Source: Fimbriimonadales bacterium (GTDB lineage: Bacteria; Armatimonadota; Fimbriimonadia; Fimbriimonadales; JABRVX01). Taken from it: DNA of 64,000 nt. The stretch is taken from the NCBI GenBank assembly GCA_045862955.1, contig BTVI01000002.1, forward strand, positions 64,001-128,000, in the 5' to 3' direction. A model generated the notes under the pieces. The model had not been told where the DNA came from and ran no database searches. It worked only from the letters and a program-made list of their open reading frames with translations. Below, one piece after another: positions 21,398-54,775 of this stretch. The translations under genes and the position numbers were made by a program. The stretch's first letter is position 1; the number at the start of each line of letters is the position of its first letter.

Positions 21398-22702
21398 ATG
21401 CCAGGTATCGCCGCTCCTAAGGAGCCTCACGTGAACCCTAACCCCACCGGTATGCATGGCGAGGGCAAGCTATTCCGCATGGCCCAAGCGCAGCTGGCGA
21501 CTGCCGCCAAATATCTCGACCTCGATGCCGGATTGCACGAAACCCTCTCGATGCCTCGCACCGAGATCACGGTGAACTTCCCCGTGGTGATGGATGACCA
21601 GAGCATCAAGGTCTTCACCGGATACCGCGTCCGGCACAACAGCGCACGCGGACCGACGAAGGGCGGAATCCGCTACGCACCCGATGCGGACATTGACGAG
21701 ACTCGCGCTCTGGCCATGTGGATGACATGGAAGTGTGCTATCGTCAACATCCCCTACGGTGGCGCGAAGGGTTCGGTCCGTGTGGACCCCCATGCGCTCA
21801 GCACGCGCGAACTGGAGAAGATGACGCGGCGATACGTCACCGAGATCAACATGATCATCGGCCCCGAGCGAGACATTCCTGCACCCGACATCGGTACCAA
21901 CCCGCAGGTGATGGCGTGGATCATGGATACCTTCAGCATGCAAGCCGGATACGCCATTCCAGGCGTCGTTACGGGAAAGCCGATACCGCTGGGTGGCACG
22001 CAAGGCCGGGTCGAGGCTACGGGACGAGGCGTGATGGTCACAGCGCTCGCCGCGGCGAAGAAGCTGAACATGAACGTGAACGGGGCCAAAGTGATCGTGC
22101 AGGGCTTCGGTAACGTCGGAAGCGTGTCCGCTAAGCTGCTCGGCGAGCAGGGCGCTACGATCGTCGGCCTGAGCGATGCGGTTGGCGCGATCTACAACCC
22201 GAAGGGCCTTCCTCTCGAGCAGTTCCTGCCCCATGCGGGCCGTGACGGCATCTTCCAGGACTTCAAGGACGCCGAGCACCTATCGAACTCGGAGCTCCTT
22301 ATCCAAGACTGTGACATTCTCGTGCCGGCGGCGACGGCAAGCCAGATCACTGCGGAGAACGCGGGCCAGATCAAAGCCAAGCTGATTGCCGAGGGCGCCA
22401 ACGGGCCTACCACACCGGAAGCGGACGATATCCTCTCGGATAAAGGAGTGCTAGTGGTACCCGACGTTCTCGCCAACGCGGGCGGCGTCGTGTGCTCGTA
22501 CTTCGAGTGGGTCCAGGACCTGCAGGCGTTCTTCTGGCACGAGAAGGAAGTGAACGAGCGCTTGGAGCGCATCATGTTGGATAGCTTCGACGCAGTGTGG
22601 AACACTACGCAGCAGCACAAGACGAACATGCGGATCGGAGCGTACATCATCGGGGTGAAGCGCGTGGCCGACGCGACGGTCACCCGCGGAATCTTCCCGT
22701 AG
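21398..22702 (+). CDS. gdhA: Glutamate dehydrogenase (Glu/Leu/Phe/Val family)
   Basis: GPTKGGIRY, PYGGAKG, DIPAPD, VVTGKP, QGFGNVG, EGANGPT, NAGGV..SYFEWVQ. Confidence 0.95.
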   Translation: MPGIAAPKEPHVNPNPTGMHGEGKLFRMAQAQLATAAKYLDLDAGLHETLSMPRTEITVNFPVVMDDQSIKVFTGYRVRHNSARGPTKGGIRYAPDADIDETRALAMWMTWKCAIVNIPYGGAKGSVRVDPHALSTRELEKMTRRYVTEINMIIGPERDIPAPDIGTNPQVMAWIMDTFSMQAGYAIPGVVTGKPIPLGGTQGRVEATGRGVMVTALAAAKKLNMNVNGAKVIVQGFGNVGSVSAKLLGEQGATIVGLSDAVGAIYNPKGLPLEQFLPHAGRDGIFQDFKDAEHLSNSELLIQDCDILVPAATASQITAENAGQIKAKLIAEGANGPTTPEADDILSDKGVLVVPDVLANAGGVVCSYFEWVQDLQAFFWHEKEVNERLERIMLDSFDAVWNTTQQHKTNMRIGAYIIGVKRVADATVTRGIFP

Positions 22703-31445: not shown

Positions 31446-32639
31446 ATGGATTTCGCCCTAACGAACGAGCACAAGCTGATTCAGGAGAGTGCCCGCCGCT
31501 TCGCCGAAACCGAAGTGCTGCCCGGCCTGAAAGAACGAGACCGGGAGGGAAGGCCCGACCCCAACCTGCTCAAGAAGATGGGCGAAGCGGGGCTGCTCGG
31601 CGTGTGCATTCCCGCCAAGTACGGGGGGCAGGATGCGGACTATGTCAGCCTCGGCCTCGTGTGCGAAGAACTGGAGCGAGCCGATAGCACCGCGCGCGTG
31701 ATCATGTCCGTGCACGTCGGGTTGAACAGCCTGGCGCTGCTGCAGTGGGGAACGGAGGAACAGAAGCAGCGATTCCTGGTGCCACAGGCGAAGGGTGAGA
31801 AGTTCGCCGGCTTCGGACTGACAGAGCCCAACGCCGGCTCTGACGTGGTGGGCATCCGAAGCACCGCGGTGCGCGATGGTGACACGTATGTGTTGAACGG
31901 CGAGAAGACGTGGATCAGCCTGGCCGACCTGGCGGACCACTTCCTGGTAGTGGCCTACACGGATCGTGCGAAGAAGTCGCGTGGGATGACGGCGTTCGTA
32001 GTGGAGCGGGGCATGCCCGGCTTCACCACCCAGCCGATCCATGGCAAGCTGGGTGTGCGCGCCGGCGACACGGGAACTCTAGTCATGCAAGACGTTCGCG
32101 TGCCGGCCGCGAACCGCATCGGCGAGGAGGGTGAGGGGTTCAAGATTGCGATGTCGGCGCTCGACAACGGACGCTACACGGTGGCGAGCGGAGCGGTAGG
32201 GATCATCGTCGCGTGCTTGGATGCGTGCGTGCCGTATTGCCGCGACAGGAAGACGGGTGGGCAGGAGATCGGCAAGCACCAACTCGTCCAGCAGATGGTA
32301 GCGCGCATGGCAGCATCGCGCGACATCGGAAGACTGTTGTACTACCGGTGTGGGTGGATGAAGAACCAGGGCATGCGTTGCACGCGCGAGGTGAGCATGG
32401 CGAAGTGGATCAACTGCGATAACGCATTCGCTGCAGCCAACGACGCGGTGCAGATCCATGGTGCCTACGGATATAGCGATGAGTTCCCCGTGGAGCGTTA
32501 CCTGAGGAACAGCCGGGGAGCGGTGATCTATGAAGGCACACGCGAGATCCACACTCTGATGCAGGCGGAGTATGAACTCGGCTACCGCCACGATCGCCCT
32601 CTTCGCTGCGAACTTCCCGGCTGGCCGTTCGAGGGCTGA
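31446..32639 (+). CDS. Acyl-CoA dehydrogenase
   Basis: FGLTEPNAGSD, LNGEKTWIS, GEEGEGFKIAM, QIHGAYGY, IYEGTREI. Confidence 0.95.
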   Translation: MDFALTNEHKLIQESARRFAETEVLPGLKERDREGRPDPNLLKKMGEAGLLGVCIPAKYGGQDADYVSLGLVCEELERADSTARVIMSVHVGLNSLALLQWGTEEQKQRFLVPQAKGEKFAGFGLTEPNAGSDVVGIRSTAVRDGDTYVLNGEKTWISLADLADHFLVVAYTDRAKKSRGMTAFVVERGMPGFTTQPIHGKLGVRAGDTGTLVMQDVRVPAANRIGEEGEGFKIAMSALDNGRYTVASGAVGIIVACLDACVPYCRDRKTGGQEIGKHQLVQQMVARMAASRDIGRLLYYRCGWMKNQGMRCTREVSMAKWINCDNAFAAANDAVQIHGAYGYSDEFPVERYLRNSRGAVIYEGTREIHTLMQAEYELGYRHDRPLRCELPGWPFEG

Positions 32640-35477: not shown

Positions 35478-38093
35478 GTGGACAACGAGGTCATCTCCAG
35501 CGGTATCGCACCGCTGGACGAGGCAATACAGGGACTTCGGCTCGGAGACAACGTCGTCTGGAGAGTCGCCAACCTCGCCGACTACAAGTATTTCGCCGAG
35601 CCTTTCGCCCGCCATTCCATCTCCGAAGGCCGGGACTGCTACTATCTGCGTTTCGCGCCACACGAGCCCATCGTAAGCTCGGTCCCCGGGGTCGAGACCA
35701 TTGAGCTGAATCCGAAGCAGGGCTTCGACGCTTTCACCGGCGAGGTGTACGACCTGGCCGAGCGGCTCGGCGAAGAGGTCTTCTACGTTTTCGACAATCT
35801 CTCGGCGCTGGTGGAGGAGTGGGCGACCGACGAGCTGCTGGCCAACTTCTTCCAGGTGACCTGCCCGTTCCTCTACGAGCTGCGCACGATTGCTTACTTC
35901 GCGCTCTCACGCCAGCAACACCCTCACAGTGCGGTGGCCAGGCTTCGCGACACCCCGCAGGTACTGCTGGACGTGTACCGCGTGAAGGGGCAGATGTATG
36001 TCCACCCGATCAAGGTGCTGGGCCGCTACTCCCCCCATATGTTCGTGCCGCACGCCGTTTCCCCCGACGGCTGGACACACGTCGTGCAGAGCGGCGATGC
36101 TGCCACCGTAACTGCAGCCGCCCGAAAGGCACCGCTGGGCGGCCCCATCACGCAGACTGCGCCATGGGAACGCGTGTACCGCAAGCTTCTGCAGTTCGTG
36201 GAGGACGGCGACGAGGTGCCGGAGCAGAACCCCGAGATTCGCGAGCTGAAGAGCCATCTCTGTCGCATGGTCATGGGCAGTCACCCGGGCTTCGACCGCC
36301 TGGCTGATAGGTACTTCACGCTAGATGACCTGCTGAGTGTACGCAATCGTCTGATCGGTTCGGGGCGCGTAGGGGGCAAAGCGGCGGGGATGCTGCTCGC
36401 CCGCGCCATCTTGCGCTCGGAAGCCGAAGAAGTGGCACTCGATTACGGACCCGTTCTGGAGCGACACGACTCCTTCTACATCGGGTCGGACGTCTTCTTT
36501 ACGTTTCTGGTGAGGAACCAACTCTTCCGCGATCGGTTGCACATCAGTCATAGGGCTGAGATCTCGCCTGAGGAGTTCGAAGAGATCGGGCGGCGGTTTC
36601 AGTCCGGAACCTTCCCCGCGGAGATCGTAGACCAGTTCCGCAGCATGATTGACTACTACGGACAGGCTCCGATCATCGTGCGGTCTAGCAGTCTGTTGGA
36701 AGACAGCTTCGGTAACGCCTTCGCGGGCAAATACCACAGCGAGTTCTTGGCTAATCAGGGCTCGCCGGAGGAGAGACTCGAATCGCTAATGGCTGCGATC
36801 AAGCGTGTGTACGCGAGTGCGCTCAGCCCGGACGCGCTAGCCTACCGCAAGCGACGTGGCCTGCTCCGAAACACGGAACAGATGGCGGTGTTAGTGCAGC
36901 GAGTTTCGGGCATGCCGTATCGCAACTGGTTTTTCCCTGCGCTCGCGGGCGTCGCCTTTTCGCGGAACATGTACGCATGGACCGACCGGATCGACCCTAA
37001 GCAGGGCGTAATTCGACTGGTCTTCGGGCTGGGCACGCGTGCCGTGGAGCGCGTGGGAGGCGACTATCCCCGCATGATCCCTGTTAGTGCTCCCTTCCTC
37101 CGGCCAGAGACGGGGCTGGACATCGCTGTGCACTCACAGCACGCTGTAGACGTGTTGGACATGACAGCCAACCGTGAGGTGACACTACCACTGACCGAGG
37201 TGCTGCGTGATCTCGACTACCCGGGCATGCATTACTTCGTTTCTCAGCGCACCGACGATGACATTCAGCATCCTGTTAGTAATCGCGTGGAGGGCCCCGC
37301 AGAGAGGCTGGTGCTAACGTTCGAGAACCTGCTGCGTCGCACGGACTTCGTGTCCACGCTGGGTGGGCTTCTCGCACGCTTGGACTCGGCATATGGTATG
37401 GCAGTGGATGTGGAGTTTACGGCGCACGTTCGACAGGACGGCTCGGTCAGGGTCAACCTCCTGCAGTGCCGCCCGATGACCTTGCCGGGCGCGGCAGAGC
37501 GTGTTACGGTTCCCAGCGATCTTCCTGCCGAGCGAGTCGTCTTTCGCACGAACAGGATGCTGGCGGGTGGCGAGGTGCACGGCATTCGGCACATCGTCTA
37601 CGTAGACACCGCCGCTTACGCAGCCCTGCCGCAGAGCGAGAAGCGGTCGGTGGGACGGGCAGTGGGCAAGATCAACGAGCGATTCGGATCGCGAGGGAAG
37701 CTCTTGACGATGGGACCAGGCCGCTGGGGGAGCAGCAACCTGGACCTGGGGGTGAACGTCGGATACGCCGATATAAGCAACGCTGCGGTGCTCGTGGAGA
37801 TTGCGCGATCGGAGTCGGGGCAGGTTCCCGAAGTCTCCTACGGCACTCATTTCTTCCTAGACCTCGTCGAGGCCGGAGTCATCTATTTGCCCGTATATCC
37901 CGATGAACCGGAGTCCCGGTACAACGAAGCGATGTTACAAGGGGCGCCGTCTGTGCTCAGCGAGGAACTCCCGGAGTTGTCCTCGCTGAATGAGCTGCTA
38001 CGTGTGATAGACGTGCCCGCTGCCACCGGTGGCATGTACGCCCACGTGGTAGCAGACCCCGATAGCCGGCAAGCGGTGTGCTACTTGGAGTAG
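35478..38093 (+). CDS. PEP/pyruvate-binding (PPDK/PEP-synthase N-terminal ATP-grasp) domain protein with degenerate KaiC/RecA-like N-terminus
   Basis: ISSGIAPLDEAIQGLRLGDNVVW; VGGKAAG, IVRSSSLLED..FAGKY, MAVLVQRV, VFGLGT, DVEF, LLQCRP; C-terminal GPGRWGS and SYGTHFF. Confidence 0.8.
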   Translation: MDNEVISSGIAPLDEAIQGLRLGDNVVWRVANLADYKYFAEPFARHSISEGRDCYYLRFAPHEPIVSSVPGVETIELNPKQGFDAFTGEVYDLAERLGEEVFYVFDNLSALVEEWATDELLANFFQVTCPFLYELRTIAYFALSRQQHPHSAVARLRDTPQVLLDVYRVKGQMYVHPIKVLGRYSPHMFVPHAVSPDGWTHVVQSGDAATVTAAARKAPLGGPITQTAPWERVYRKLLQFVEDGDEVPEQNPEIRELKSHLCRMVMGSHPGFDRLADRYFTLDDLLSVRNRLIGSGRVGGKAAGMLLARAILRSEAEEVALDYGPVLERHDSFYIGSDVFFTFLVRNQLFRDRLHISHRAEISPEEFEEIGRRFQSGTFPAEIVDQFRSMIDYYGQAPIIVRSSSLLEDSFGNAFAGKYHSEFLANQGSPEERLESLMAAIKRVYASALSPDALAYRKRRGLLRNTEQMAVLVQRVSGMPYRNWFFPALAGVAFSRNMYAWTDRIDPKQGVIRLVFGLGTRAVERVGGDYPRMIPVSAPFLRPETGLDIAVHSQHAVDVLDMTANREVTLPLTEVLRDLDYPGMHYFVSQRTDDDIQHPVSNRVEGPAERLVLTFENLLRRTDFVSTLGGLLARLDSAYGMAVDVEFTAHVRQDGSVRVNLLQCRPMTLPGAAERVTVPSDLPAERVVFRTNRMLAGGEVHGIRHIVYVDTAAYAALPQSEKRSVGRAVGKINERFGSRGKLLTMGPGRWGSSNLDLGVNVGYADISNAAVLVEIARSESGQVPEVSYGTHFFLDLVEAGVIYLPVYPDEPESRYNEAMLQGAPSVLSEELPELSSLNELLRVIDVPAATGGMYAHVVADPDSRQAVCYLE

Positions 38094-41774: not shown

Positions 41775-43331
41775 CTAGTCGAGCACCTGGCGCACCGAAT
41801 CGATCACGGTTCCATCCACCCACTTGATCGCAGCGACGACTTTCTCACCGAGCTTCGGCCGCGCCGGAGGCCCGCCGCAGATGGCATCCACCTCTCGCTT
41901 GATGTCCTCCAGGGGTCGGATCGGAAGCGATGAGCACTTGACTGCGTCTATCAGATCCTGCCGCAGCGGATTGATGGCGATGCCCCGTTCGGTGACGATA
42001 ACATCGATCAGCTCCCCAGGCCCACACAGCGTAGTCACTTCGTCCAGGATGACGGGGATGCGGTCACGGAAGGACGGAATAGGTAGCATGGTGCACTTGG
42101 CAAAGAGGCAGTTCTGCCACCCACCTATTCCGTGCAGCAGTCGTCCGTCCGAGTGCGTAACGACGTTAGCGTTGAAGTTCAAGTCCACCTCGGTCGCACC
42201 CAGCACCGTTACGTCCACCATCGAGGCGAAGTTGCCCTTGCCGTGGTAGTTGTAACTCGTAAACGGGCTAGTGTTCACGTGGCGTGGGTTGTCCCTCATG
42301 GAGCGGACTCCGTCCAGATCGAACGTCTGCCCGTCCAGGATATATTCGACCAAACCCTCTTCGAGCATCTGCACGAGGTACTTGTTGCTGCCCCCTCGCG
42401 CGAACCTCGCCTTGATCCCCTTCTTCCTCATCATCTCGCCGAGGAAGATGGAGAAGGAGAGGGCAGTCCCGCCCGCGCCAGCCTGGAACGAGAACCCGTC
42501 GCGCACGATGCCTACCTCTTCGCAGAACCGCGCAGCCAACTCTGCTATTAGTAGCCGATCGGGACTGCGCGTGATCTGCGTCGTGCCGGAAACGATCTTC
42601 GCCGGCTCGCCGATGCGATCCATCACAACCACATAGTCCACGTAGTTGCCATGGATCTGCCACGGGATACAAGGAAACGGAACTAGGTTATCGGTGACCA
42701 CGATGACCTTATCTGCATACTGACTGTCCGCGAGTGCGAAACCTAGTAGACCACACGCCGAAGGTCCCGTCACGCCGTTTGCGTTGCCGAAGGGGTCCGC
42801 AGTCGGAGCCGCAATCACTGCTATATCGATATGAACCTCGCCATCCTGCACCGCTTGATAGCGGCCCCCATGCGACCGCAGCACTCCCAGTCCCCGCATC
42901 TTTCCCCGAGAGCAGTACTCTCCCAGCGGCCCATTGAGGCTGCCCTCGATGTGGTGGATCACACCCGATTCCATGTGGTCCACCATGCGCGCGTGGCAGG
43001 GGAACGATGCGCTGGGGAACCACATGAGGTCCTTCGCACCCAGCTCGGCAGCCGCGTCGAATACCGCGCAGGCCACCATGTCACCGTCCCGAAAGTGGTG
43101 GTGGGTGGAGATAGTCATCCCGTCGCGCAACCCACACGCCTGCAGCGCCTCGTGCAGCGAGCCGACCACCTTGTTGCCGTCGGCGGGGTAGTCGGCGCAA
43201 CTAGCAATGGGCGGTGCAGCCTTGCGACCCGATGGGCGATACTTACCCACTCCTTGGTAGGGAATGGCCTCTCTGCCGTTCACTTCGGTCGGAACCCATC
43301 GGCCTATCGCGTTTTGCACCAGCTCACTCAT
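41775..43331 (-). CDS. citF: Citrate lyase alpha subunit-like CoA/ACP transferase
   Basis: GLRDGMTISTHHHFRDGD, RSHGGR, FQAGAGG, LGATEVDLNFNANV, DVIVTERGIAINP, DGTVID. Confidence 0.9.
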   Translation of the reverse strand: MSELVQNAIGRWVPTEVNGREAIPYQGVGKYRPSGRKAAPPIASCADYPADGNKVVGSLHEALQACGLRDGMTISTHHHFRDGDMVACAVFDAAAELGAKDLMWFPSASFPCHARMVDHMESGVIHHIEGSLNGPLGEYCSRGKMRGLGVLRSHGGRYQAVQDGEVHIDIAVIAAPTADPFGNANGVTGPSACGLLGFALADSQYADKVIVVTDNLVPFPCIPWQIHGNYVDYVVVMDRIGEPAKIVSGTTQITRSPDRLLIAELAARFCEEVGIVRDGFSFQAGAGGTALSFSIFLGEMMRKKGIKARFARGGSNKYLVQMLEEGLVEYILDGQTFDLDGVRSMRDNPRHVNTSPFTSYNYHGKGNFASMVDVTVLGATEVDLNFNANVVTHSDGRLLHGIGGWQNCLFAKCTMLPIPSFRDRIPVILDEVTTLCGPGELIDVIVTERGIAINPLRQDLIDAVKCSSLPIRPLEDIKREVDAICGGPPARPKLGEKVVAAIKWVDGTVIDSVRQVLD

Positions 43332-44529
43332 TGGCAGTCTCTCTCCAGTTCTCAGGTATCAAGCCGCACGCTACGGCCAATTTCACGGTGCGGAGCGCAC
43401 GCTTGACGACGGGAGGATCGATCATCTTGCTGCCCAGCGCTACGACACCTAGACCCTTCGCCGTAGCATCTTCATACGCTGTTACGATTCGCTTGGCCCT
43501 CTCGACAGCCTCCGGCGACGGGGCGAACTCCTCGTGAATGGGACGTATCTGGCGTGGGTGGATACAGCCCTTGCCTTCGAAGCCGAGAGCTTTCGCTTCG
43601 CGCACGCTGGCCCGCAGACCTGCCTCATCGTCGATGTCGGAAAACACCGTGTCGATCGGCTGGATGCCTGCGGCTCTCGCTGCGTTTAAGACCTGGGAGC
43701 GCGCCCAAAAGCTTTCGCGACCTTCGGCGGTACGTTCCGCACCTATGTCTGCCGTATAGTCCTCCAAGCCGATGGCCAAGGCACACACGGAGCGGCATGC
43801 CGACGCGATCTCGTAGGCACGGAAAGCGCCCAGTGCGCTCTCGATGATAGGCATTAGATAGGTATCGGAGGCGCCGGACTCGCGCATCGCTTCGTCCACT
43901 TCGCGCACCTGCTCTGCGCTCTCGCACTTCGGGATCAGCACGACATGCACGTTGTGCGGGGCGATCACCCGGATGTCTTCCAGGCCGAGTGGCAGCTGAT
44001 TGATACGTACCATTCGCTCGCCACTGCCAAAATCCACCTGCCGGAGTGCGTTGCGAACCAGGAGACGTGCGGAGTCCTTCTCGGTGGGGGCCACGCTGTC
44101 TTCCAGGTCTAAGATATAGCCGTCTGCGCCGTGGAGGCCGGCGTTCGTGAAGAACTTCGGCTCCCCGCCAGGCAGGTACAGCCGCGAGCGTCGGAACCGC
44201 TCCTTCTCAGTAGGGACTTGCGTACACGGTAGAGCCTCCGGCAGCCAAGTGTTCGTATTCAGTGGGTCCGCGCGCTTGACCGCGGCTTCCAACCGAGCAG
44301 CTATCACGTAAGGTAGCGCACCGTAATCTTGCATGGTCACCTTCGCGTGGTGCACTCCCAGCTCGCCCAGCACGTCGCGGACGAAAGAGCGGATGGAGTC
44401 TCCGTACATCGACTCGACGCGGGTCGTCACATCCACTTCGAGCGGCCCACCATCACGCAGCTCGATGGACACCCAACAATCCGATCGTACGCGGTCGCCT
44501 TGACGCCCAGCAGTGCCAGTCCCACTCAT
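43324..44529 (-). CDS. Fusion of CitD (ACP)-like domain and CitE (citryl-CoA lyase)-like domain
   Basis: N-terminal ~90 aa: AG..SDC.V..., VESMYGDSIR, DYGALPYVIAARLEAAVKRA (CitD); C-terminal RRSRLYLPG, LDLEDSVAP, VRIN, IES, GLEDYTAD, GFEGKGCIHPRQI, KMIDPP (CitE). Confidence 0.88.
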   Translation of the reverse strand: MSGTGTAGRQGDRVRSDCWVSIELRDGGPLEVDVTTRVESMYGDSIRSFVRDVLGELGVHHAKVTMQDYGALPYVIAARLEAAVKRADPLNTNTWLPEALPCTQVPTEKERFRRSRLYLPGGEPKFFTNAGLHGADGYILDLEDSVAPTEKDSARLLVRNALRQVDFGSGERMVRINQLPLGLEDIRVIAPHNVHVVLIPKCESAEQVREVDEAMRESGASDTYLMPIIESALGAFRAYEIASACRSVCALAIGLEDYTADIGAERTAEGRESFWARSQVLNAARAAGIQPIDTVFSDIDDEAGLRASVREAKALGFEGKGCIHPRQIRPIHEEFAPSPEAVERAKRIVTAYEDATAKGLGVVALGSKMIDPPVVKRALRTVKLAVACGLIPENWRETANE

Positions 44530-45020
44530 GCCATGCCCCTCTCGCGCTCGAGCTTCTGTAGCGTGTAGTTGAGCAGGCCCCCTGCATCACGTATTGCGAG
44601 CATCTCGTCCGGCAGTCCTGGGAACCGGTAACTCGATTCGCCGACCGTGATCACGCCCTCGCGCGCATCAATCTCTACCTTGTCACCTTCGCGATAGGCA
44701 TAGACCGCCTCAGAGCATTCTACTAACAGCAGGCCCTGATTGAGGGCGGCACGGTAGAAGATGCGTGAGAAGCTACCTGCTACCACCGCCTGAATGCCAA
44801 CGGCGCGCAGACCTATCACGGGTTGCTCACGCGAGCTGCCACATCCGAAGTTCTTACCAGCCATGATGATGTCACCCTCGCGCACCCCTTCGGCGAACTC
44901 CGGGTCGAGATCCTCTAGCAAGTGCGGACGGATTTCGTCTGGCGTAGCACATGTGTAGGTGTACTTGCCGGGAAACAGCAGATCGGTATTGATGTCGTCT
45001 CCGTACTTCCACACCCTCAT
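44526..45020 (-). CDS. Homoaconitase / isopropylmalate isomerase small subunit
   Basis: DDINTDLLFPGKYTY, NFGCGSSREQ, SFSRIFYR..LNQG. Confidence 0.9.
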   Translation of the reverse strand: MRVWKYGDDINTDLLFPGKYTYTCATPDEIRPHLLEDLDPEFAEGVREGDIIMAGKNFGCGSSREQPVIGLRAVGIQAVVAGSFSRIFYRAALNQGLLLVECSEAVYAYREGDKVEIDAREGVITVGESSYRFPGLPDEMLAIRDAGGLLNYTLQKLERERGMA

Positions 45021-46276
45021 GCCTCATACTCCTCGCGGGGGTCGGTGATCCTGCCATGGATCGCGCTGGCTGCGACCGTAGCAGGACTCGCCAGATAGAT
45101 GTCGGCCTCCACGCATCCCATACGGCCCCGGAAGTTCCGGTTGGCGGTGCTGATGCACGCCTCGCCCGGTGCCAGCACTCCCTGGTGAGCCCCCATGCAA
45201 GGACCGCAGCCCGATGGCAAGATCAGCGAACCAGCTGCGCTCAACACTGCGATGGTGCCGTCGGCCAGCGCCTCGTCCAGCACCTTCTTACTTGCGGGCA
45301 CGGTAAGCATGCGGCAGTCGGGCGAGATCCTCCGGCCCTTCAGGATTCGCGCGGCCTCGTGCAGGTCGCTGAGCCGCCCATTGGTGCATGTGCCGAGAAA
45401 GGCCTGATGGATCGCGACGTCTCCCAGCTCGGCAGCAGGGCGCACGTTGTCCACCCGATGCGGGATTGCCACCAGGGGGACCAGCGAATCCAGGTCGAAC
45501 GAGTACTCTGCCACGTACTTGGCGTCTGCGTCCGCCCATAGCGGCTCGCCCGTTGCGCGATGGCCGCTCATATACTCGAGGGCGATCTCGTCCACTGGGA
45601 ATGCAGCGTTCTTCGCACCCATCTCCACAGCCATGTTACAAATCGCGATGCGGTCGTCCATGGTGAGTCCATCTACCGCACCGTGAAACTCGACCGAGCA
45701 GTAGTTGGCACCGTCCGCACCCATCTCGCGGATGATTGCCAACATCAGGTCCTTAGCTGCCACGGGCGGGCGTAGCCTGCCGGACAGCGTGATCTTGATG
45801 GAGTGAGGTACCCGCAACCATGTCTCACCCGTGAGCAAGAGGCATGCTGCCTCGGTGCGGTCGATACCCGTGCTGAATGCGCCGATGGCGCCATAAGTAC
45901 AAGTATGCGAGTCCGATCCCACGATGAGCTTGCCGGGACCCGCGAGGCCCTCTTCCATCACCAGCTGATGACATATACCCATACCGACATCGTAGAAGTG
46001 CCGGATGCCTTGCGACTTGACGAACTCCCGAACCGCCTTGTGCTGAGCGGCTGCTTTCTCGTTAGCGGCAGGAGACACATGATCGAGCACGATGATAGGC
46101 AGCTCTGGATCGCAGACGCCGTACTTCAGCAGCTCGTTCTCCACCTTCTTGATGATCGGTGCCGTGTTGTCATGGGTGAGCAAGTGATCCGGACGAACGG
46201 TGACCACCTGGCCCGGAACCACTGCATCATGGCCAGACGCCCTAGCTAGCACTTTCTCGGCAAACGTCATTCCCAC
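45017..46276 (-). CDS. Homoaconitase / isopropylmalate isomerase large subunit
   Basis: THDN, LDH, GICHQ, DSHTCTYG, GTCTNGR, CGPCMG, STANRNF.GRMG, YLASP. Confidence 0.92.
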   Translation of the reverse strand: MGMTFAEKVLARASGHDAVVPGQVVTVRPDHLLTHDNTAPIIKKVENELLKYGVCDPELPIIVLDHVSPAANEKAAAQHKAVREFVKSQGIRHFYDVGMGICHQLVMEEGLAGPGKLIVGSDSHTCTYGAIGAFSTGIDRTEAACLLLTGETWLRVPHSIKITLSGRLRPPVAAKDLMLAIIREMGADGANYCSVEFHGAVDGLTMDDRIAICNMAVEMGAKNAAFPVDEIALEYMSGHRATGEPLWADADAKYVAEYSFDLDSLVPLVAIPHRVDNVRPAAELGDVAIHQAFLGTCTNGRLSDLHEAARILKGRRISPDCRMLTVPASKKVLDEALADGTIAVLSAAGSLILPSGCGPCMGAHQGVLAPGEACISTANRNFRGRMGCVEADIYLASPATVAASAIHGRITDPREEYEA

Positions 46277-46286
46277 GATACGACTC

Positions 46287-46862
46287 CTATTCGATCAGCC
46301 TGCCCGCTTTACGGAACACGAAGGGGTCGAAGGCCGCGAAGTCCGCCTGGTGGATGAAGATAGTTTCTACTACCTGCGGACGTCCATCGCCCTCCTTGGA
46401 GTGGCAGACGATGATGTTGATGATCTCCTCGGGCAGCCCGACGACCGCCGCTAGCCATGCACCGGAAATGGGATGGCGCGCGCAGCGACCGGTGTGGCTC
46501 ATCCGATACCCGCCCTGTCCGTCTGGCTCGATCTCGAGCAGCTTGCCCACGTCGTGCACCAGTCCGCCCGCGATCAGTCGATCCATGTCCACGTGGTAGG
46601 GCATCTTGTCATAGGCTCGCCGTTGTGCCTCGGCTAAGGCAACAGCGCCCTCTGTAACCGCAATAGTGTGCTGGATGAAATTAATGCCCTCTGCATCTAC
46701 CAAGAGAGTAAAGGGCATGTTGCGCACGTCCTCGATACTGTTCCAATTGCCGCGCTTGCACGCCAGCAGCCACGTGTCAACCACCTTACGCCTCAGTTCT
46801 TCGTTTTCTATCCGCTGCAACTGGGAACGGAAGAGGTCTTCGATCTCGGTTCTGGTTATCAT
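46287..46862 (-). CDS. HD-domain phosphohydrolase
   Basis: QHT...HDVGK...HPISG...CHS...HQAD metal-binding pattern. Confidence 0.85.
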   Translation of the reverse strand: MITRTEIEDLFRSQLQRIENEELRRKVVDTWLLACKRGNWNSIEDVRNMPFTLLVDAEGINFIQHTIAVTEGAVALAEAQRRAYDKMPYHVDMDRLIAGGLVHDVGKLLEIEPDGQGGYRMSHTGRCARHPISGAWLAAVVGLPEEIINIIVCHSKEGDGRPQVVETIFIHQADFAAFDPFVFRKAGRLIE

Positions 46863-46901
46863 GTCATTGGTCCCGTCGAGTGTATTCTTGGCCGAGTGTC
46901 C

Positions 46902-48086
46902 CTACAGGTTGGCGATGATGGCATCCGTCATCTCATAGGTGCTAGCGGCTCCCTGCGCGAGCGCCTCCGGGCCGCCGCGCAGCTTCAGCATGTCATAGGT
47001 TCGCACTTTGCCTTCCTGGACCACCGCGGCGATGGCTAACCGAATGCGAGCGGCACGCGAATCCTCCCCTATGTGATCCAGCATCATGCACGCGCTCAGG
47101 ATCATGGCTATGGGGTTCACGATAGGTGGATCGAGATGTGCGTACTTCGGTGCGGAGCCGTGAGTGGGTTCGAATACCGCCACCTCTTCTCCGAGGTTCG
47201 CACTGCACGCGAATCCCAACCCGCCGACCAGCCCCGCAAATGCATCCGACACGATGTCGCCGAAGAGGTTGCCGCAAACGATCACACCATAGTCTTCGGG
47301 GTTCTTTGTGAGCCACATAAGCTGTGCATCGATGTTCGTGTCCCAAAGCTGGATCTCCGGAAATCCCAACGCGATTCGCTCGGCCTCCGTCATCATCATG
47401 CCGCTCGTCTCGCGCAGCACGTTCGGCTTCTCGCACACGGTGACGGACTTGTACCGGTGTTTGCGTGCATACTCGAATGCCGCAGAGATGATACGTTGGC
47501 TCGCCTTGCGCGTAATGATGCGGCAGGAGATGGCCAGGTCCTCGCTCGGTGTGTCGGAAAATGCTTGCATCTTCGGATGAGTCTCGAGGGCTGCTCGGAC
47601 GCGGTCGGGCGGGTTGGTCCACTCCACCCCGCAGTACTCGCCCTCTGTGTTCTGCCGGAACACCACGACGTCTACGTGCGGCTCTTCGATGCCGGACACG
47701 CCTTTGCGCACGAAGTTGAGCGGGTTGCCCGGGAACGAACGACACGGACGGATGCAGATGTCCAGGTTGAAACGCTGGCGCATCGTGACGATCGGGCTGT
47801 AATAAGTGTAGCCCTTGTCTTGCAGCTCGGGAGCCAGCTCGGCCTTCGCCGCCGCTTTCGGCTTCGAGGTGATCGCGCCAAACAGCCCGAGCTTATGCTC
47901 GGCGAGAAGCTCGATCGTCCGTTCGGGAAGTGCGTTGCCCTCCTTGCACCAGAACTCCCAGCCGATGTCGCCGTGAACGTATTCGGCCTCGAACCCCGCC
48001 GCACGAAGAACCTTGAGAGCGCAAGGCATTACTACCTTGCCGATGCCGTCCCCCGGCATCGTTACGACCGTCCGATGCGCCATCAC
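46902..48086 (-). CDS. Isocitrate/isopropylmalate/homoisocitrate dehydrogenase family protein
   Basis: PGDGIG, LFGAITS, YYSPIVTMR, RQNTEGEY, KPNVL, NLFGDIVSD..AGLVGGLG, FEPTHGSAP. Confidence 0.92.
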   Translation of the reverse strand: MMAHRTVVTMPGDGIGKVVMPCALKVLRAAGFEAEYVHGDIGWEFWCKEGNALPERTIELLAEHKLGLFGAITSKPKAAAKAELAPELQDKGYTYYSPIVTMRQRFNLDICIRPCRSFPGNPLNFVRKGVSGIEEPHVDVVVFRQNTEGEYCGVEWTNPPDRVRAALETHPKMQAFSDTPSEDLAISCRIITRKASQRIISAAFEYARKHRYKSVTVCEKPNVLRETSGMMMTEAERIALGFPEIQLWDTNIDAQLMWLTKNPEDYGVIVCGNLFGDIVSDAFAGLVGGLGFACSANLGEEVAVFEPTHGSAPKYAHLDPPIVNPIAMILSACMMLDHIGEDSRAARIRLAIAAVVQEGKVRTYDMLKLRGGPEALAQGAASTYEMTDAIIANL

Positions 48087-53687: not shown

Positions 53688-54775
53688 ATCTCTCCACCCC
53701 CCATGGGGTGGAGAGACGTTGACCGAAACCCGGAGACCACACGCCCGCGCACCTCCACCCCCCATGGGGTGGAGAGACGAGAAGGCGCGCCACACCACTA
53801 TACGAGCAGGCGCGCCACACCACCATCTCTCCACCCCCCATGGGGTGGAGAGACGAGCAGGCATGCCACACCACAATCTCTCCACCCCCCATGGGGTGGA
53901 GAGACGAGCAGGCACGCCACACTACTATCTCTCCACCCCCCATGGGGTGGAGAGACGATCACGCACGCCACACCACTATCATCTCTCCACCCCCCATGGG
54001 GTGGAGAGACGATCAGGCATGCCACACCACTATCATCTCTCCACCCCCCATGGGGTGGAGAGACGAGCAGGCATGCCACACCACCATCTCTCCACCCCCC
54101 ATGGGGTGGAGAGACGATCAGGCACGCCACACCACTATCTCTCCACCCCCCCATGGGGTGGAGAGACGAGAAGGCACGGGAGCCTCCATCCGAGGGCGGA
54201 TGGAGGCAAGGGACTCTGAGAGCGGCGGAGGCATGCCACACCACTATCTCTCCACCCCCCCATGGGGTGGAGAGACGAGAAGGCGCGGGAGCCTCCATCC
54301 GAGGGCGGATGGAGGCATGGGTCTCGAGTGCGGATGGAGGCATGACGAGAAGGCGCGGGAGCCTCCATCCGAGGGCGGATGGAGGCATGCCACACTATCA
54401 TCTCTCCACCCCCCCATGGGGTGGAGAGACGAGAAGGCACGAGAGCCTCCATCCGAGGGCGGATGGAGGCATGGGAAAGGCATCACCACTATCTCTCCAC
54501 CCCCCATGGGGTGGCGAGGCGAGAAGGCGCACGATCCTCCATCCGAGGGCGGATGGAGGCATGGGAAAGGCATCACCACCATCTCTCCACCCCCCATGGG
54601 GTGGAGAGACGAGAAGGCGCACGAGAGCCTCCATCCGATGGCGGATGGAGGCATGGGACTCTGAGATCACCACCATCTCTCCACCCCCCATGGGGTGGAG
54701 AGGCGAGAAGGCGCACGAGCCTCCATCCGATGGCCGATGGAGGCATGGGACTCGGAGAACGGCGGAGGCATGACG
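53688..54775. repeat. Mosaic array of two palindromes (BIME/REP-like): 14 x CTCTCCACCCCCC(C)ATGGGGTGGAGAG and 7 x GCCTCCATCCGAGGGCGGATGGAGGC
   Basis: Counted by eye; first nine A copies precede any B, mostly at 51/54-bp period, then A and B alternate; linkers near-identical. Confidence 0.92.

Follow-up and report, generated by a model that had tools for sequence, protein, structure and literature searches.

An operon that joins enzymes resembling homoisocitrate dehydrogenase and homoaconitase to a complex resembling citrate lyase raises an obvious question: which substrate does such an assembly act upon, and in which direction? The operon occupies positions 41775..48086 of a 64,000-nucleotide stretch (here 'the window') of a Fimbriimonadales bacterium genome (contig BTVI01000002.1; 97.6% complete). 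A sequence-only reading had proposed that its six genes interconvert a 2-oxo acid with acetyl-CoA and a shorter 2-oxo acid, either with the lyase replacing a synthase or by reductive carboxylation and cleavage. The analysis described here favours the second direction: with a probability of roughly 0.6, the operon represents the upper alpha-aminoadipate pathway in reverse, breaking down 2-oxoadipate that would derive mainly from lysine.

Organization of the locus

All six open reading frames are intact, lie on the minus strand and are tightly packed (successive gaps of 39, 10, -4, -4 and -8 nt), as had been described. Neither a sigma-70-like promoter nor a coding-strand terminator was found at the operon, and public sequencing runs, consulted as a check for expression or co-transcription, matched at most 14% of words and gave short contigs only. 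The motifs that had first suggested 'homo-' enzymes are present: THDN at residue 34 of the large aconitase subunit (AcnL); NTD, PGKYTY and GCGSSREQ at residues 11, 17 and 59 of the small subunit (AcnS); and LFGA and SPIV at residues 67 and 96 of the dehydrogenase. The reported absences also extend to the whole genome, in which no citC, citG or citX, no PF00682 protein (Claisen synthase) and no citrate transporter (queried with CitT of E. coli and the 2-hydroxycarboxylate transporter of Enterococcus) could be found. Two features had been overlooked: a seventh part, namely a second dehydratase encoded here in trans, and a CitD domain without the serine taken as its cofactor site.

The dehydrogenase and the aconitase pair

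The beta-decarboxylating dehydrogenase (46902..48083, minus strand; 393 amino acids; PF00180, Iso_dh) is likely an NADP-type homoisocitrate dehydrogenase (HICDH). It scores below every NCBIfam equivalog cut-off (the two best models being AksF2, 271.9 against 540, and AksF, 262.8 against 500), and no fungal-type HICDH model is among its matches. Its substrate loop, YYSPIV, is closest to that of the S. pombe HICDH 3TY3 (YSSPIV), and SPIV occurs in 30 of 30 locus homologues. Ser96 aligns with Ser113 of E. coli Icd, and Ile98 stands in place of Asn115; the same combination of a retained serine and a replaced asparagine is found in the S. pombe enzyme. The nucleotide motifs HGSAPKY (again in 30/30 locus homologues) and TYD are those of E. 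coli Icd, in contrast to the HGSAPDI of Thermus HICDH. The loop upholds the previously noted likeness to HICDH; the leuB model gives a score of 157 against a cut-off of 353.

AcnL (45017..46276, minus strand; 419 amino acids; HacA family) and AcnS (44526..45020, minus strand; 164 amino acids; LeuD/HacB family, above the TIGR02087 cut-off) likely form a homoaconitase that interconverts homoisocitrate and cis-homoaconitate. AcnL exceeds the cut-offs of NF001614, TIGR01343 and TIGR02086, and the motifs with its three Fe-S cysteines (GTCTNG and GCGPCMG) are intact. Against the homoaconitase model TIGR00139 (cut-off 529.9) the split subunits reach 281.8 and 90.2, whereas fused aconitases at the corresponding place in two relatives, both of those tested, exceed it at 889 and 776 bits. 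These fused proteins share the PGKYTY loop of AcnS; in 3VBA and 2PKP the loop reads YLVY and YLRT, respectively. In a quick tree constructed without fungal, Thermus or archaeal reference rows, AcnL groups with ten module-linked split subunits (SH-aLRT 99), apart from five LeuC proteins of leu operons, and the split and fused types are linked with an SH-aLRT of 87.

The substrate looks to be a seven-carbon acid, because the loop is of the HICDH type, the relatives' aconitases pass TIGR00139, and none of the 11 lysW loci found in related genomes (0/11) contains an aconitase or dehydrogenase match. In five of five such genomes examined, moreover, no Aconitase or Iso_dh proteins occur apart from the module's own, the TCA aconitase, LeuC/LeuB and Icd; in G163 the sole Iso_dh is that of the module, a monomeric IDH being encoded separately. 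To judge from these computational comparisons, the 'homo-' part of the original proposal was probably correct.

A citrate-lyase-type complex without citC, citG or citX

The CitD-CitE fusion (43324..44529, minus strand; 401 amino acids) combines a PF06857 ACP domain (residues ~1-95) with a PF03328 CitE domain, an acyl-CoA C-C lyase TIM barrel; the adjoining gene (41775..43331, minus strand; 518 amino acids; PF04223) encodes a CitF-type (family II) CoA/ACP transferase. All are below the cut-offs of the TIGR models (citD 58.2/63.5, citE 273.6/443.4, citF 491.3/501.45), and the CitD, CitE and CitF parts are ~30, 41 and 40% identical to those of E. coli. Full-length module-family copies of CitF share 69-80% identity, compared with ~41% to canonical CitF. 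CitF matches PDB entries 2HJ0 and 1XR4, and the predicted CitDE model (pLDDT 95) matches the folds of CLYBL, malyl-CoA lyase and (S)-citramalyl-CoA lyase. Substitutions specific to the family, relative to 4-5 canonical sequences, are found at 12 positions in CitF and 16 in CitE; as candidate determinants of substrate size they were set aside, since they are not assignable without ligand-bound coordinates.

Ser14 of CitD, which we take to be the attachment site of the phosphoribosyl-dephospho-CoA group, is kept in four of four canonical CitD proteins; Arg15 of CitDE occupies its position, and 69 of 71 aligned family members have arginine there. CitG was found in 0/50 genomes of relatives, and CitX in 0/50-51. 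Because the presumed cofactor serine is an arginine in 69/71 members, the lyase likely works with free CoA and without a prosthetic group; because a neighbouring serine is retained in 70/71, another system may load CitD through that residue. PDB sequence searches gave no CitD-MdcC match. The literature searched contained no statement that Ser14 is the CitD attachment site, and a 'Ser14' in PMC5534430 was rejected as such a statement, since the text appears to mean Ser142.

The small HD-domain protein (46287..46862, minus strand; 191 amino acids; PF01966 plus HDIG) has no step in the proposed pathway. Its AlphaFold model (pLDDT 93) is best matched by YhaM (E 5e-5, TM 0.66), a protein atlas and fold search returned generic HD/YhaM-like matches only, and Ignavibacteria homologues have another residue in place of the HD-motif histidine. 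A complex prediction with CitDE, in which the HD protein might act on the ACP domain, returned no answer (score 0.00).

A second dehydratase

Homoaconitases carry out the homoisocitrate half of the isomerization only and require a second enzyme, the equilibrium lying far toward homocitrate; syn-elimination is performed by PrpD and is impossible for aconitases (PMC3556520). A candidate for the second enzyme, either PrpD-like or an aconitase with an 'RDFGG' motif, accompanies 26 of 26 near-complete loci (the HD protein is present in 24 of the 26). Across 50 genomes, and at the thresholds used, 28 have the PrpD-like protein only, 18 the RDFGG aconitase only, one both and three neither. In the window's genome a PrpD-like orthologue is found on another contig (C6); the genome also has its own PrpB, PrpC-type synthase and second PrpD. 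The module PrpD belongs to a subfamily of its own (97 bits, with a cut-off of 575).

Conservation of the module

The six genes are a conserved module, inherited together across many bacterial phyla. A survey of 80 loci with a CitDE fusion, many of them cut by contig ends, found CitF in 63, the aconitase in 45 and the dehydrogenase in 30, and citC, citX or citG in none (0/80). At least one non-lyase partner recurs in 56/80, so the arrangement is not due to chance, and the synteny anticipated from the single locus is real. Ignavibacteria are the commonest group among these loci, and a GTDB scan yielded at least 511 confirmed stretches with a CitDE/CitF-type lyase. The proposal is directly testable, as all parts of the module are present in Melioribacter roseus (locus L025), a species in culture. 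Clustering with LeuBCD or Icd, unconserved synteny and citCGX genes elsewhere, any of which would have counted against the sequence-only reading, were not observed.

Proposed pathway and its direction

From gene content, protein families, motifs, co-inheritance and the missing citG and citX, we infer substrates, cofactor, direction and stereochemistry as follows. The dehydrogenase would carboxylate 2-oxoadipate to homoisocitrate (using NADPH and CO2), the aconitase pair would dehydrate this to cis-homoaconitate, and the PrpD-like enzyme would hydrate the latter to homocitrate, probably as the (S) enantiomer, the one acceptable to an Si-face lyase of the CitE type. CitF would then transfer CoA from free acetyl-CoA to homocitrate, releasing acetate, and CitE would split homocitryl-CoA into 2-oxoglutarate and acetyl-CoA, with the CitD domain left as a structural relic that bears no prosthetic group. 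The net reaction would be 2-oxoadipate + CO2 -> 2-oxoglutarate + acetate.

The direction looks catabolic, because the window's genome appears to make lysine by the DAP route (lysC, asd, dapA, dapB and dapF homologues, with lysA above its cut-off) and has neither lysW nor, with relatives' queries, LysX or a homocitrate synthase, and because the module has genes of lysine degradation as neighbours in five relatives. In one of these (L085) saccharopine-pathway genes stand immediately upstream of citDE, in two (L036 and L083) Pcd adjoins citF, and in two more (G198 and G200) the last gene of an LKR-SDH-Pcd operon is a module-type PrpD; a lysine-catabolic gene is nearby in only 3/80 loci. SDH-like genes occur in 31/51 genomes and a close Pcd in 35/50, figures that have no matched control set. 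The window's genome has a saccharopine/lysine dehydrogenase-like gene; it gave no LKR match and no close Pcd (the nearest aldehyde dehydrogenase, at 38% identity, reaches 384, the Pcd cut-off being 730), and therefore the supply of 2-oxoadipate is not established there. Of the two directions first proposed, reductive carboxylation and cleavage is the one that the DAP route and the missing lysW favour.

Several observations run against the preferred reading of 2-oxoadipate breakdown. Besides the TIGR00139 scores of the split subunits, these are malic enzyme genes inside two clusters; SucAB, the usual entry for 2-oxoadipate, in the window's genome; one relative (G170) whose module dehydrogenase is the sole Iso_dh besides LeuB, with no monomeric IDH found; and two same-phylum genomes with a 56-57% identical dehydrogenase, accompanied by an aconitase pair, and neither citDE nor lysW. 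A HICDH role by way of lysW for the lyase-less dehydrogenase of the last two is unsupported, lysW not having been found there.

Alternative explanations

A six-carbon version of the route, in which 2-oxoglutarate (from glutamate or the reverse TCA cycle) would undergo reductive carboxylation to isocitrate and proceed through citrate to oxaloacetate and acetate, or plain citrate fermentation, is unlikely but draws on several findings. CitF misses the citF cut-off narrowly, the dehydrogenase has the Icd nucleotide motif and keeps the Ser113 equivalent, malic enzyme inside two of the 80 clusters (L054 and L070) suits oxaloacetate as product, and 2-oxoacid:ferredoxin oxidoreductase genes adjoin the module in L084 and G196. 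It is also the published view, in the main text of PMC3362086, of the Ignavibacterium album pair IALB_1146/IALB_1147, which has the same architecture (CitF plus a CitD-CitE fusion) and is interpreted there as a citrate lyase serving fermentation or the reverse TCA cycle; the words aconitase, isocitrate dehydrogenase and methylcitrate are absent from that main text. Such a route leaves unexplained the homoaconitase-equivalog aconitase, the HICDH-type loop with Asn115 lost, the near-universal second dehydratase and the lysine-catabolic neighbours. The genome, moreover, already has a separate AcnA, two other ICDH-like Iso_dh proteins and two citrate synthases, and the two transporter queries found no means of citrate uptake.

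Quite unlikely is an external tricarboxylate, of seven carbons or otherwise, or 2-oxoadipate from a non-lysine source such as tryptophan or glutarate, handled by the same chemistry and perhaps routed to the lyase as well as, by oxidation, to 2-oxoadipate. The lack of a close Pcd and of LKR here would suit such a source, as would an acyl-CoA dehydrogenase elsewhere in the window (31446-32639), whose second-best match is a glutaryl-CoA dehydrogenase model, below cut-off (336 against 470), although it could not be identified as that enzyme. The 80 loci show no conserved transporter near the module, and the lysine-catabolic neighbours in five relatives again suggest lysine.

A biosynthetic role, with lyase and transferase reversed as a homocitrate synthase that feeds 2-oxoadipate or aminoadipate (lysine) synthesis, seems very unlikely. 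A PF00682 synthase is missing from 26/50 relatives as well as from the window's genome, and a biosynthetic function of the dehydrogenase and aconitase is probable in lysW-bearing relatives, where (in 5/5 examined) the module enzymes are the sole Aconitase and Iso_dh proteins besides TCA aconitase, LeuC/LeuB and Icd. But in 9 of the 11 genomes with lysW, a homocitrate-synthase-like gene distinct from the module adjoins lysW (best model LysS, below cut-off), 40/51 genomes, the window's included, have no lysW match, and lysA is above cut-off in 30/51. Condensation ending in CoA transfer to acetate also has no thioester hydrolysis to drive it. I. album, with its CitDE/CitF pair, is reported to have no lysine pathway at all (PMC3362086). 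The earlier suggestion that the lyase replaces a synthase is weakened accordingly.

That the genes are plain LeuBCD, or a citramalate/alkylmalate route with a citramalate lyase attached, is extremely improbable: the large subunit does belong to the HacA/LeuC family and the lyase does share the fold of (S)-citramalyl-CoA lyases, but neither LeuA/CimA nor ilvD was found in the genome, the dehydrogenase is far below the leuB cut-off, and relatives have separate leu operons alongside the module, their LeuC branching apart.

Relationship to known systems

The upper alpha-aminoadipate pathway (fungal Lys20/21, Aco2/AcoA, Lys4 and Lys12; Thermus LysS, LysTU and HICDH) shares with the module a HICDH-like loop, a homoaconitase-type aconitase and two separate enzymes for homocitrate-homoisocitrate isomerization (PMC3556520); the module differs in having a CoA transferase and lyase instead of homocitrate synthase, a PrpD-like or RDFGG second dehydratase and, probably, the reverse direction. 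Citrate (pro-3S)-lyase (citCDEFXG of E. coli and lactic acid bacteria) has homologous CitD, CitE and CitF parts, whereas the module has a CitD-CitE fusion with arginine instead of Ser14, citC/G/X were not found, neither a transporter nor oxaloacetate decarboxylase is conserved, and the lyase genes are linked to a dehydrogenase and two dehydratases. The methylcitrate cycle (PrpC, PrpD or AcnD, aconitase, PrpB) likewise splits isomerization between PrpD and an aconitase (PMC3556520), but ends in PrpB rather than a decarboxylating dehydrogenase, and its PrpD is of another subfamily. Free-CoA C-C lyases (itaconate/citramalyl-CoA Ict-Ich-Ccl, malyl-CoA lyase, CLYBL) also pair a CoA transferase with a CitE-fold lyase acting on free CoA esters; the module retains an ACP-like domain, uses a CitF-type (family II) transferase and would act on a C7 tricarboxylate. 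No literature on the module was found (subscription journals lay outside the coverage), with 0 occurrences of 'homocitrate lyase', 'homocitryl-CoA' or 'homocitrate cleavage'.

Implications

Tentatively, and at a little under even odds, the family may embody a previously undescribed route by which many bacterial phyla turn lysine into glutamate and acetate, fixing CO2 and needing no oxygen. It would consist of NADPH-dependent reductive carboxylation of 2-oxoadipate, homoaconitase, a PrpD-like or RDFGG (S)-homocitrate hydratase and a free-CoA homocitrate lyase, and would bypass glutaryl-CoA dehydrogenase; some carriers may also use the dehydrogenase and homoaconitase in the forward direction, in combination with a LysW operon located apart. 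If true, this would add a new route of amino-acid breakdown and three new activities (homocitrate lyase, homocitrate hydratase in two unrelated folds, and NADP-type HICDH), would give Lys4-like homoaconitases a bacterial function in genomes without aminoadipate lysine synthesis, and would mean that a citrate-lyase-type complex is able to drop its dedicated cofactor system. [quoted passage not shown]

Organization and conservation of the operon

The operon at 41775..48086 comprises six intact open reading frames, all on the minus strand, encoding a dehydrogenase (46902-48083), an HD protein (46287-46862), the large (45017-46276) and small (44526-45020) subunits of an aconitase, a CitD-CitE fusion (CitDE; 43324-44529) and CitF (41775-43331), separated by gaps of 39, 10, -4, -4 and -8 nucleotides. 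The sequence-only reading, which had described co-oriented, tightly packed genes, is borne out: the families are upheld by Pfam and NCBIfam profile matches, and every motif that it quoted was found in the operon proteins. The base composition of the operon is that of the window; elsewhere, at 53800-54750, lie REP-like arrays, with 7.3 copies of a unit of about 51 bp that includes a palindrome-like CTCTCCACCCCCCATGGGGTGGAGAG, followed by composite repeats of 90-184 bp.

The operon had also been noted to lack citC, citG, citX and a Claisen synthase, and this now extends to the whole genome (97.55% complete), in which searches found no CitG, no CitX, no CitC (two queries) and no member of PF00682, the family that covers homocitrate synthase, LeuA and CimA. 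The same genome separately encodes AcnA, two further Iso_dh proteins and a Si-citrate synthase, and carries a PrpC-type synthase adjoining PrpB; these separate enzymes, together with the absence of PF00682, rule out the operon as a part of the TCA cycle, as a methylcitrate cycle or as LeuBCD. Because ilvD and a leu operon, like PF00682, were not found in this genome (an ilvC-like gene remains), the organism is likely a branched-chain amino acid auxotroph.

With CitDE as the query, a GTDB scan gave at least 511 confirmed stretches, of which the best 80 were analysed; these come from Ignavibacteria, Planctomycetota, WOR-3, KSB1, Eisenbacteria, Acidobacteriota, Gemmatimonadota, Aminicenantes, Chloroflexota, Cloacimonadota and others. 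Within 10 kb either side of CitDE, a range in which contig ends cut many loci, 63 of the 80 have CitF, 45 and 46 the two aconitase subunits, 32 the HD protein and 30 the dehydrogenase; none has citC, citX or citG. The gene neighbourhood, for which the sequence-only reading had proposed a survey of conservation, is thus a conserved but patchy module in these best 80 loci. Whole-genome searches covered 50 of the 80 genomes, an enriched set (42 chosen whose locus includes a partner gene and eight whose locus does not), and identified a dehydrogenase orthologue in 46, including six of the eight without a local partner. Among 150 other sampled genomes of the window's phylum, neither a close CitDE nor a dehydrogenase of more than 60% identity turned up; a distant CitDE occurs in two, and a dehydrogenase of 56-57% identity in two others. 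The module was probably acquired horizontally. In Ignavibacteria loci (L011-L065), junctions between module genes are repeatedly filled by small ORFs, presumably four-helix-bundle-like, GxxExxY and Phd/RelE-like.

Of the 26 near-complete loci, 24 carry the HD protein. Its fold is YhaM-like, and its metal ligands are intact in the window, with one His lost in Ignavibacteria; our guess is that it is a phosphohydrolase of CoA or NADP derivatives with a housekeeping function.

The lyase and its cofactor

The module does not belong to the canonical citrate lyase system: two defining features of that system were looked for and not found. Of 71 aligned family sequences, 69 have Arg (one has Lys and one a gap) where E. 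coli CitD has Ser14, which we take to be the attachment site of the prosthetic group. The alignment left out 12 of the 80 loci, two of which, read separately, have Ala and Asn; Ser is kept in all four canonical CitD proteins. CitG was found in none of 50 genomes and CitX in none of 51, with the E. coli controls detected. The module's lyase has likely lost its cofactor; isolated citrate lyase subunits are active with free CoA esters. Modification by another system is conceivable at the Ser beside the lost position, which is kept in 70 of 71 sequences. For MdcC, the analogous site is documented as Ser25 (PMC5534430), and roles of citC, citG and citX are described in PMC2996986.

Two further stretches, L100 (G115:C2:851000-870000) and L101 (G097:C11:113000-132000), contain a distant CitDE and CitF pair of 38-41% identity that also has Arg in place of Ser14. 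The pair stands after genes for an ABC transporter and for what look like glycoside hydrolases, and the ORFs listed there include neither a dehydrogenase nor an aconitase; the cofactor-less lyase may have a third use here.

Size of the substrate

The substrate looks to be seven-carbon. In the dehydrogenase, the catalytic residues match those of E. coli Icd and the equivalent of Ser113 is conserved, but Asn115 is replaced by Ile; its loop is best matched by S. pombe HICDH (E 0.009 over an 81-aa fragment, weak by itself), SPIV is present in all 30 homologues, and the best whole-protein matches, a putative NAD-ICDH and the Thermus HICDH, score similarly. The fused aconitase that relatives carry in the same slot passes the homoaconitase equivalog (two of two tested) and has THDN and PGKYTY in common with the window's split pair, which does not pass it. 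In a quick tree the window's large subunit grouped with 10 module-linked split subunits (support 99) and five leu-operon LeuC proteins branched apart; the split subunits join the fused homoaconitase type with a support of only 87.

The best test of substrate size was whether the module complements the gene content of lysW operons. Of 51 genomes, 11 have lysW, in nine with a synthase-like gene adjoining, and in the single operon examined for this LysX and LysZ scored over cut-off; none of the 11 lysW stretches (5-19 kb, three ending at contig ends) gave aconitase or dehydrogenase matches. The other family members in the five lysW genomes examined are only TCA aconitase, LeuC, LeuB and Icd. In one genome, G163, the complement is limited to the dehydrogenase and aconitase of the module, AcnA and a monomeric IDH. 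Against the seven-carbon reading counts G170, in which no separate ICDH was found.

The LysW operons of Ignavibacteria (L104:4247-10023 in G154, also L102, L105, L106, L108, L110 and L112) contain a synthase-like gene, lysX, lysY, lysZ and lysJ, with no lysK among the ORFs listed; between lysY and lysZ lies a 214-aa Ntn-hydrolase with a weak EgtC match, a candidate non-orthologous LysW-lysine hydrolase.

A second dehydratase

A second dehydratase accompanies all 26 loci that hold the dehydrogenase, a Lys4-like aconitase, CitDE and CitF. Across the 80 loci a PrpD-like protein occurs in 35, a fused 'RDFGG' aconitase in 17 and both in only one; across 50 genomes, which include related and hence not independent ones, 28 have only the former (at least 47% identity), 18 only the latter (at least 56%), one both and three neither, two of these three having a split version (49-51%). 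The 'RDFGG' proteins (L010:6205-8019 and 16 other loci) are about 600 aa long and form a well-supported clade that alternates with PrpD; they passed no equivalog model. The gene is absent from the window's operon, and a stand-alone PrpD-like orthologue lies elsewhere in the genome (G000:C6:89039-90421; 42-59% identity, as against 30-38% for a second PrpD on contig C12).

On the face specificities that we assume, a CitE-type (Si-face) lyase would require (S)-homocitrate, which an ordinary aconitase would not make, and this would account for the presence of a dedicated PrpD-like enzyme alongside AcnA. According to PMC3556520, homoaconitases catalyse only the homoaconitate-homoisocitrate step, so that a second enzyme is needed, the equilibrium lies far on the homocitrate side, and PrpD performs a syn-elimination that is beyond aconitases.

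Direction of the pathway

The sequence-only reading had left two directions, a lyase in place of a synthase or reductive carboxylation followed by cleavage; the second, catabolic one is favoured, with some contrary results. The window's genome has aspartokinase-, asd-, dapA-, dapB- and dapF-like genes, a lysA over its cut-off (as in 30 of 51 genomes) and no lysW, and therefore needs no aminoadipate route to lysine. In locus L085 a saccharopine dehydrogenase (SDH) gene and an LKR-like gene lie directly upstream of citDE, in L036 and L083 a Pcd gene lies downstream of citF (the cut-off being passed in L083), and in genomes G198 and G200 an LKR-SDH-Pcd operon continues into the module-type PrpD. 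HGSAPKY, presumably an NADP signature, is present in all 30 dehydrogenase homologues, matching E. coli Icd, and is compatible with a reductive role, though no proof of one.

Against this direction, lysine-catabolic neighbours occur in only three of the 80 loci, the window's genome encodes SucAB, and malic enzyme lies inside two clusters. Of 51 genomes, 31 have SDH-like genes, and of 50, 35 have a close Pcd, frequencies without a matched control set. In the window's genome LKR gave no match and the closest aldehyde dehydrogenase (38%) did not pass the Pcd model; one gene has as its best PDB match PH1688, which we take to be a lysine dehydrogenase.

Within 25 kb of the operon lie genes for a glutamate dehydrogenase (21398-22702), an acyl-CoA dehydrogenase (31446-32639) and an 871-aa protein (35478-38093) that presumably resembles the PEP/pyruvate-binding-domain family; in G198 and G200, the interval from Pcd to the module PrpD contains a glutamate dehydrogenase and two large unassigned ORFs. 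L156:3109-9745 (G007) and L155:8784-12705 (G095) encode a related dehydrogenase, with the SPIV and HGSAPKY motifs, together with a HacAB-type pair, and neither has citDE or lysW; in G007 a PrpB/ICL-family lyase stands between dehydrogenase and pair.

Relation to earlier work

In I. album, the pair formed by CitF and CitDE has been described as an ATP-independent citrate lyase, possibly for a reverse TCA cycle, and the organism is reported to lack lysine biosynthesis (PMC3362086); the passages found in PMC3534657 make no mention of the pair. Neither the module nor a homocitrate lyase was described in the literature searched, with subscription journals and supplements outside its scope. The module is real and conserved, and we predict, with a probability of roughly 0.6, that it works like the upper aminoadipate pathway run in reverse, with a free-CoA lyase as the last enzyme, and would convert 2-oxoadipate and CO2 through homoisocitrate, cis-homoaconitate and homocitrate into 2-oxoglutarate and acetate.
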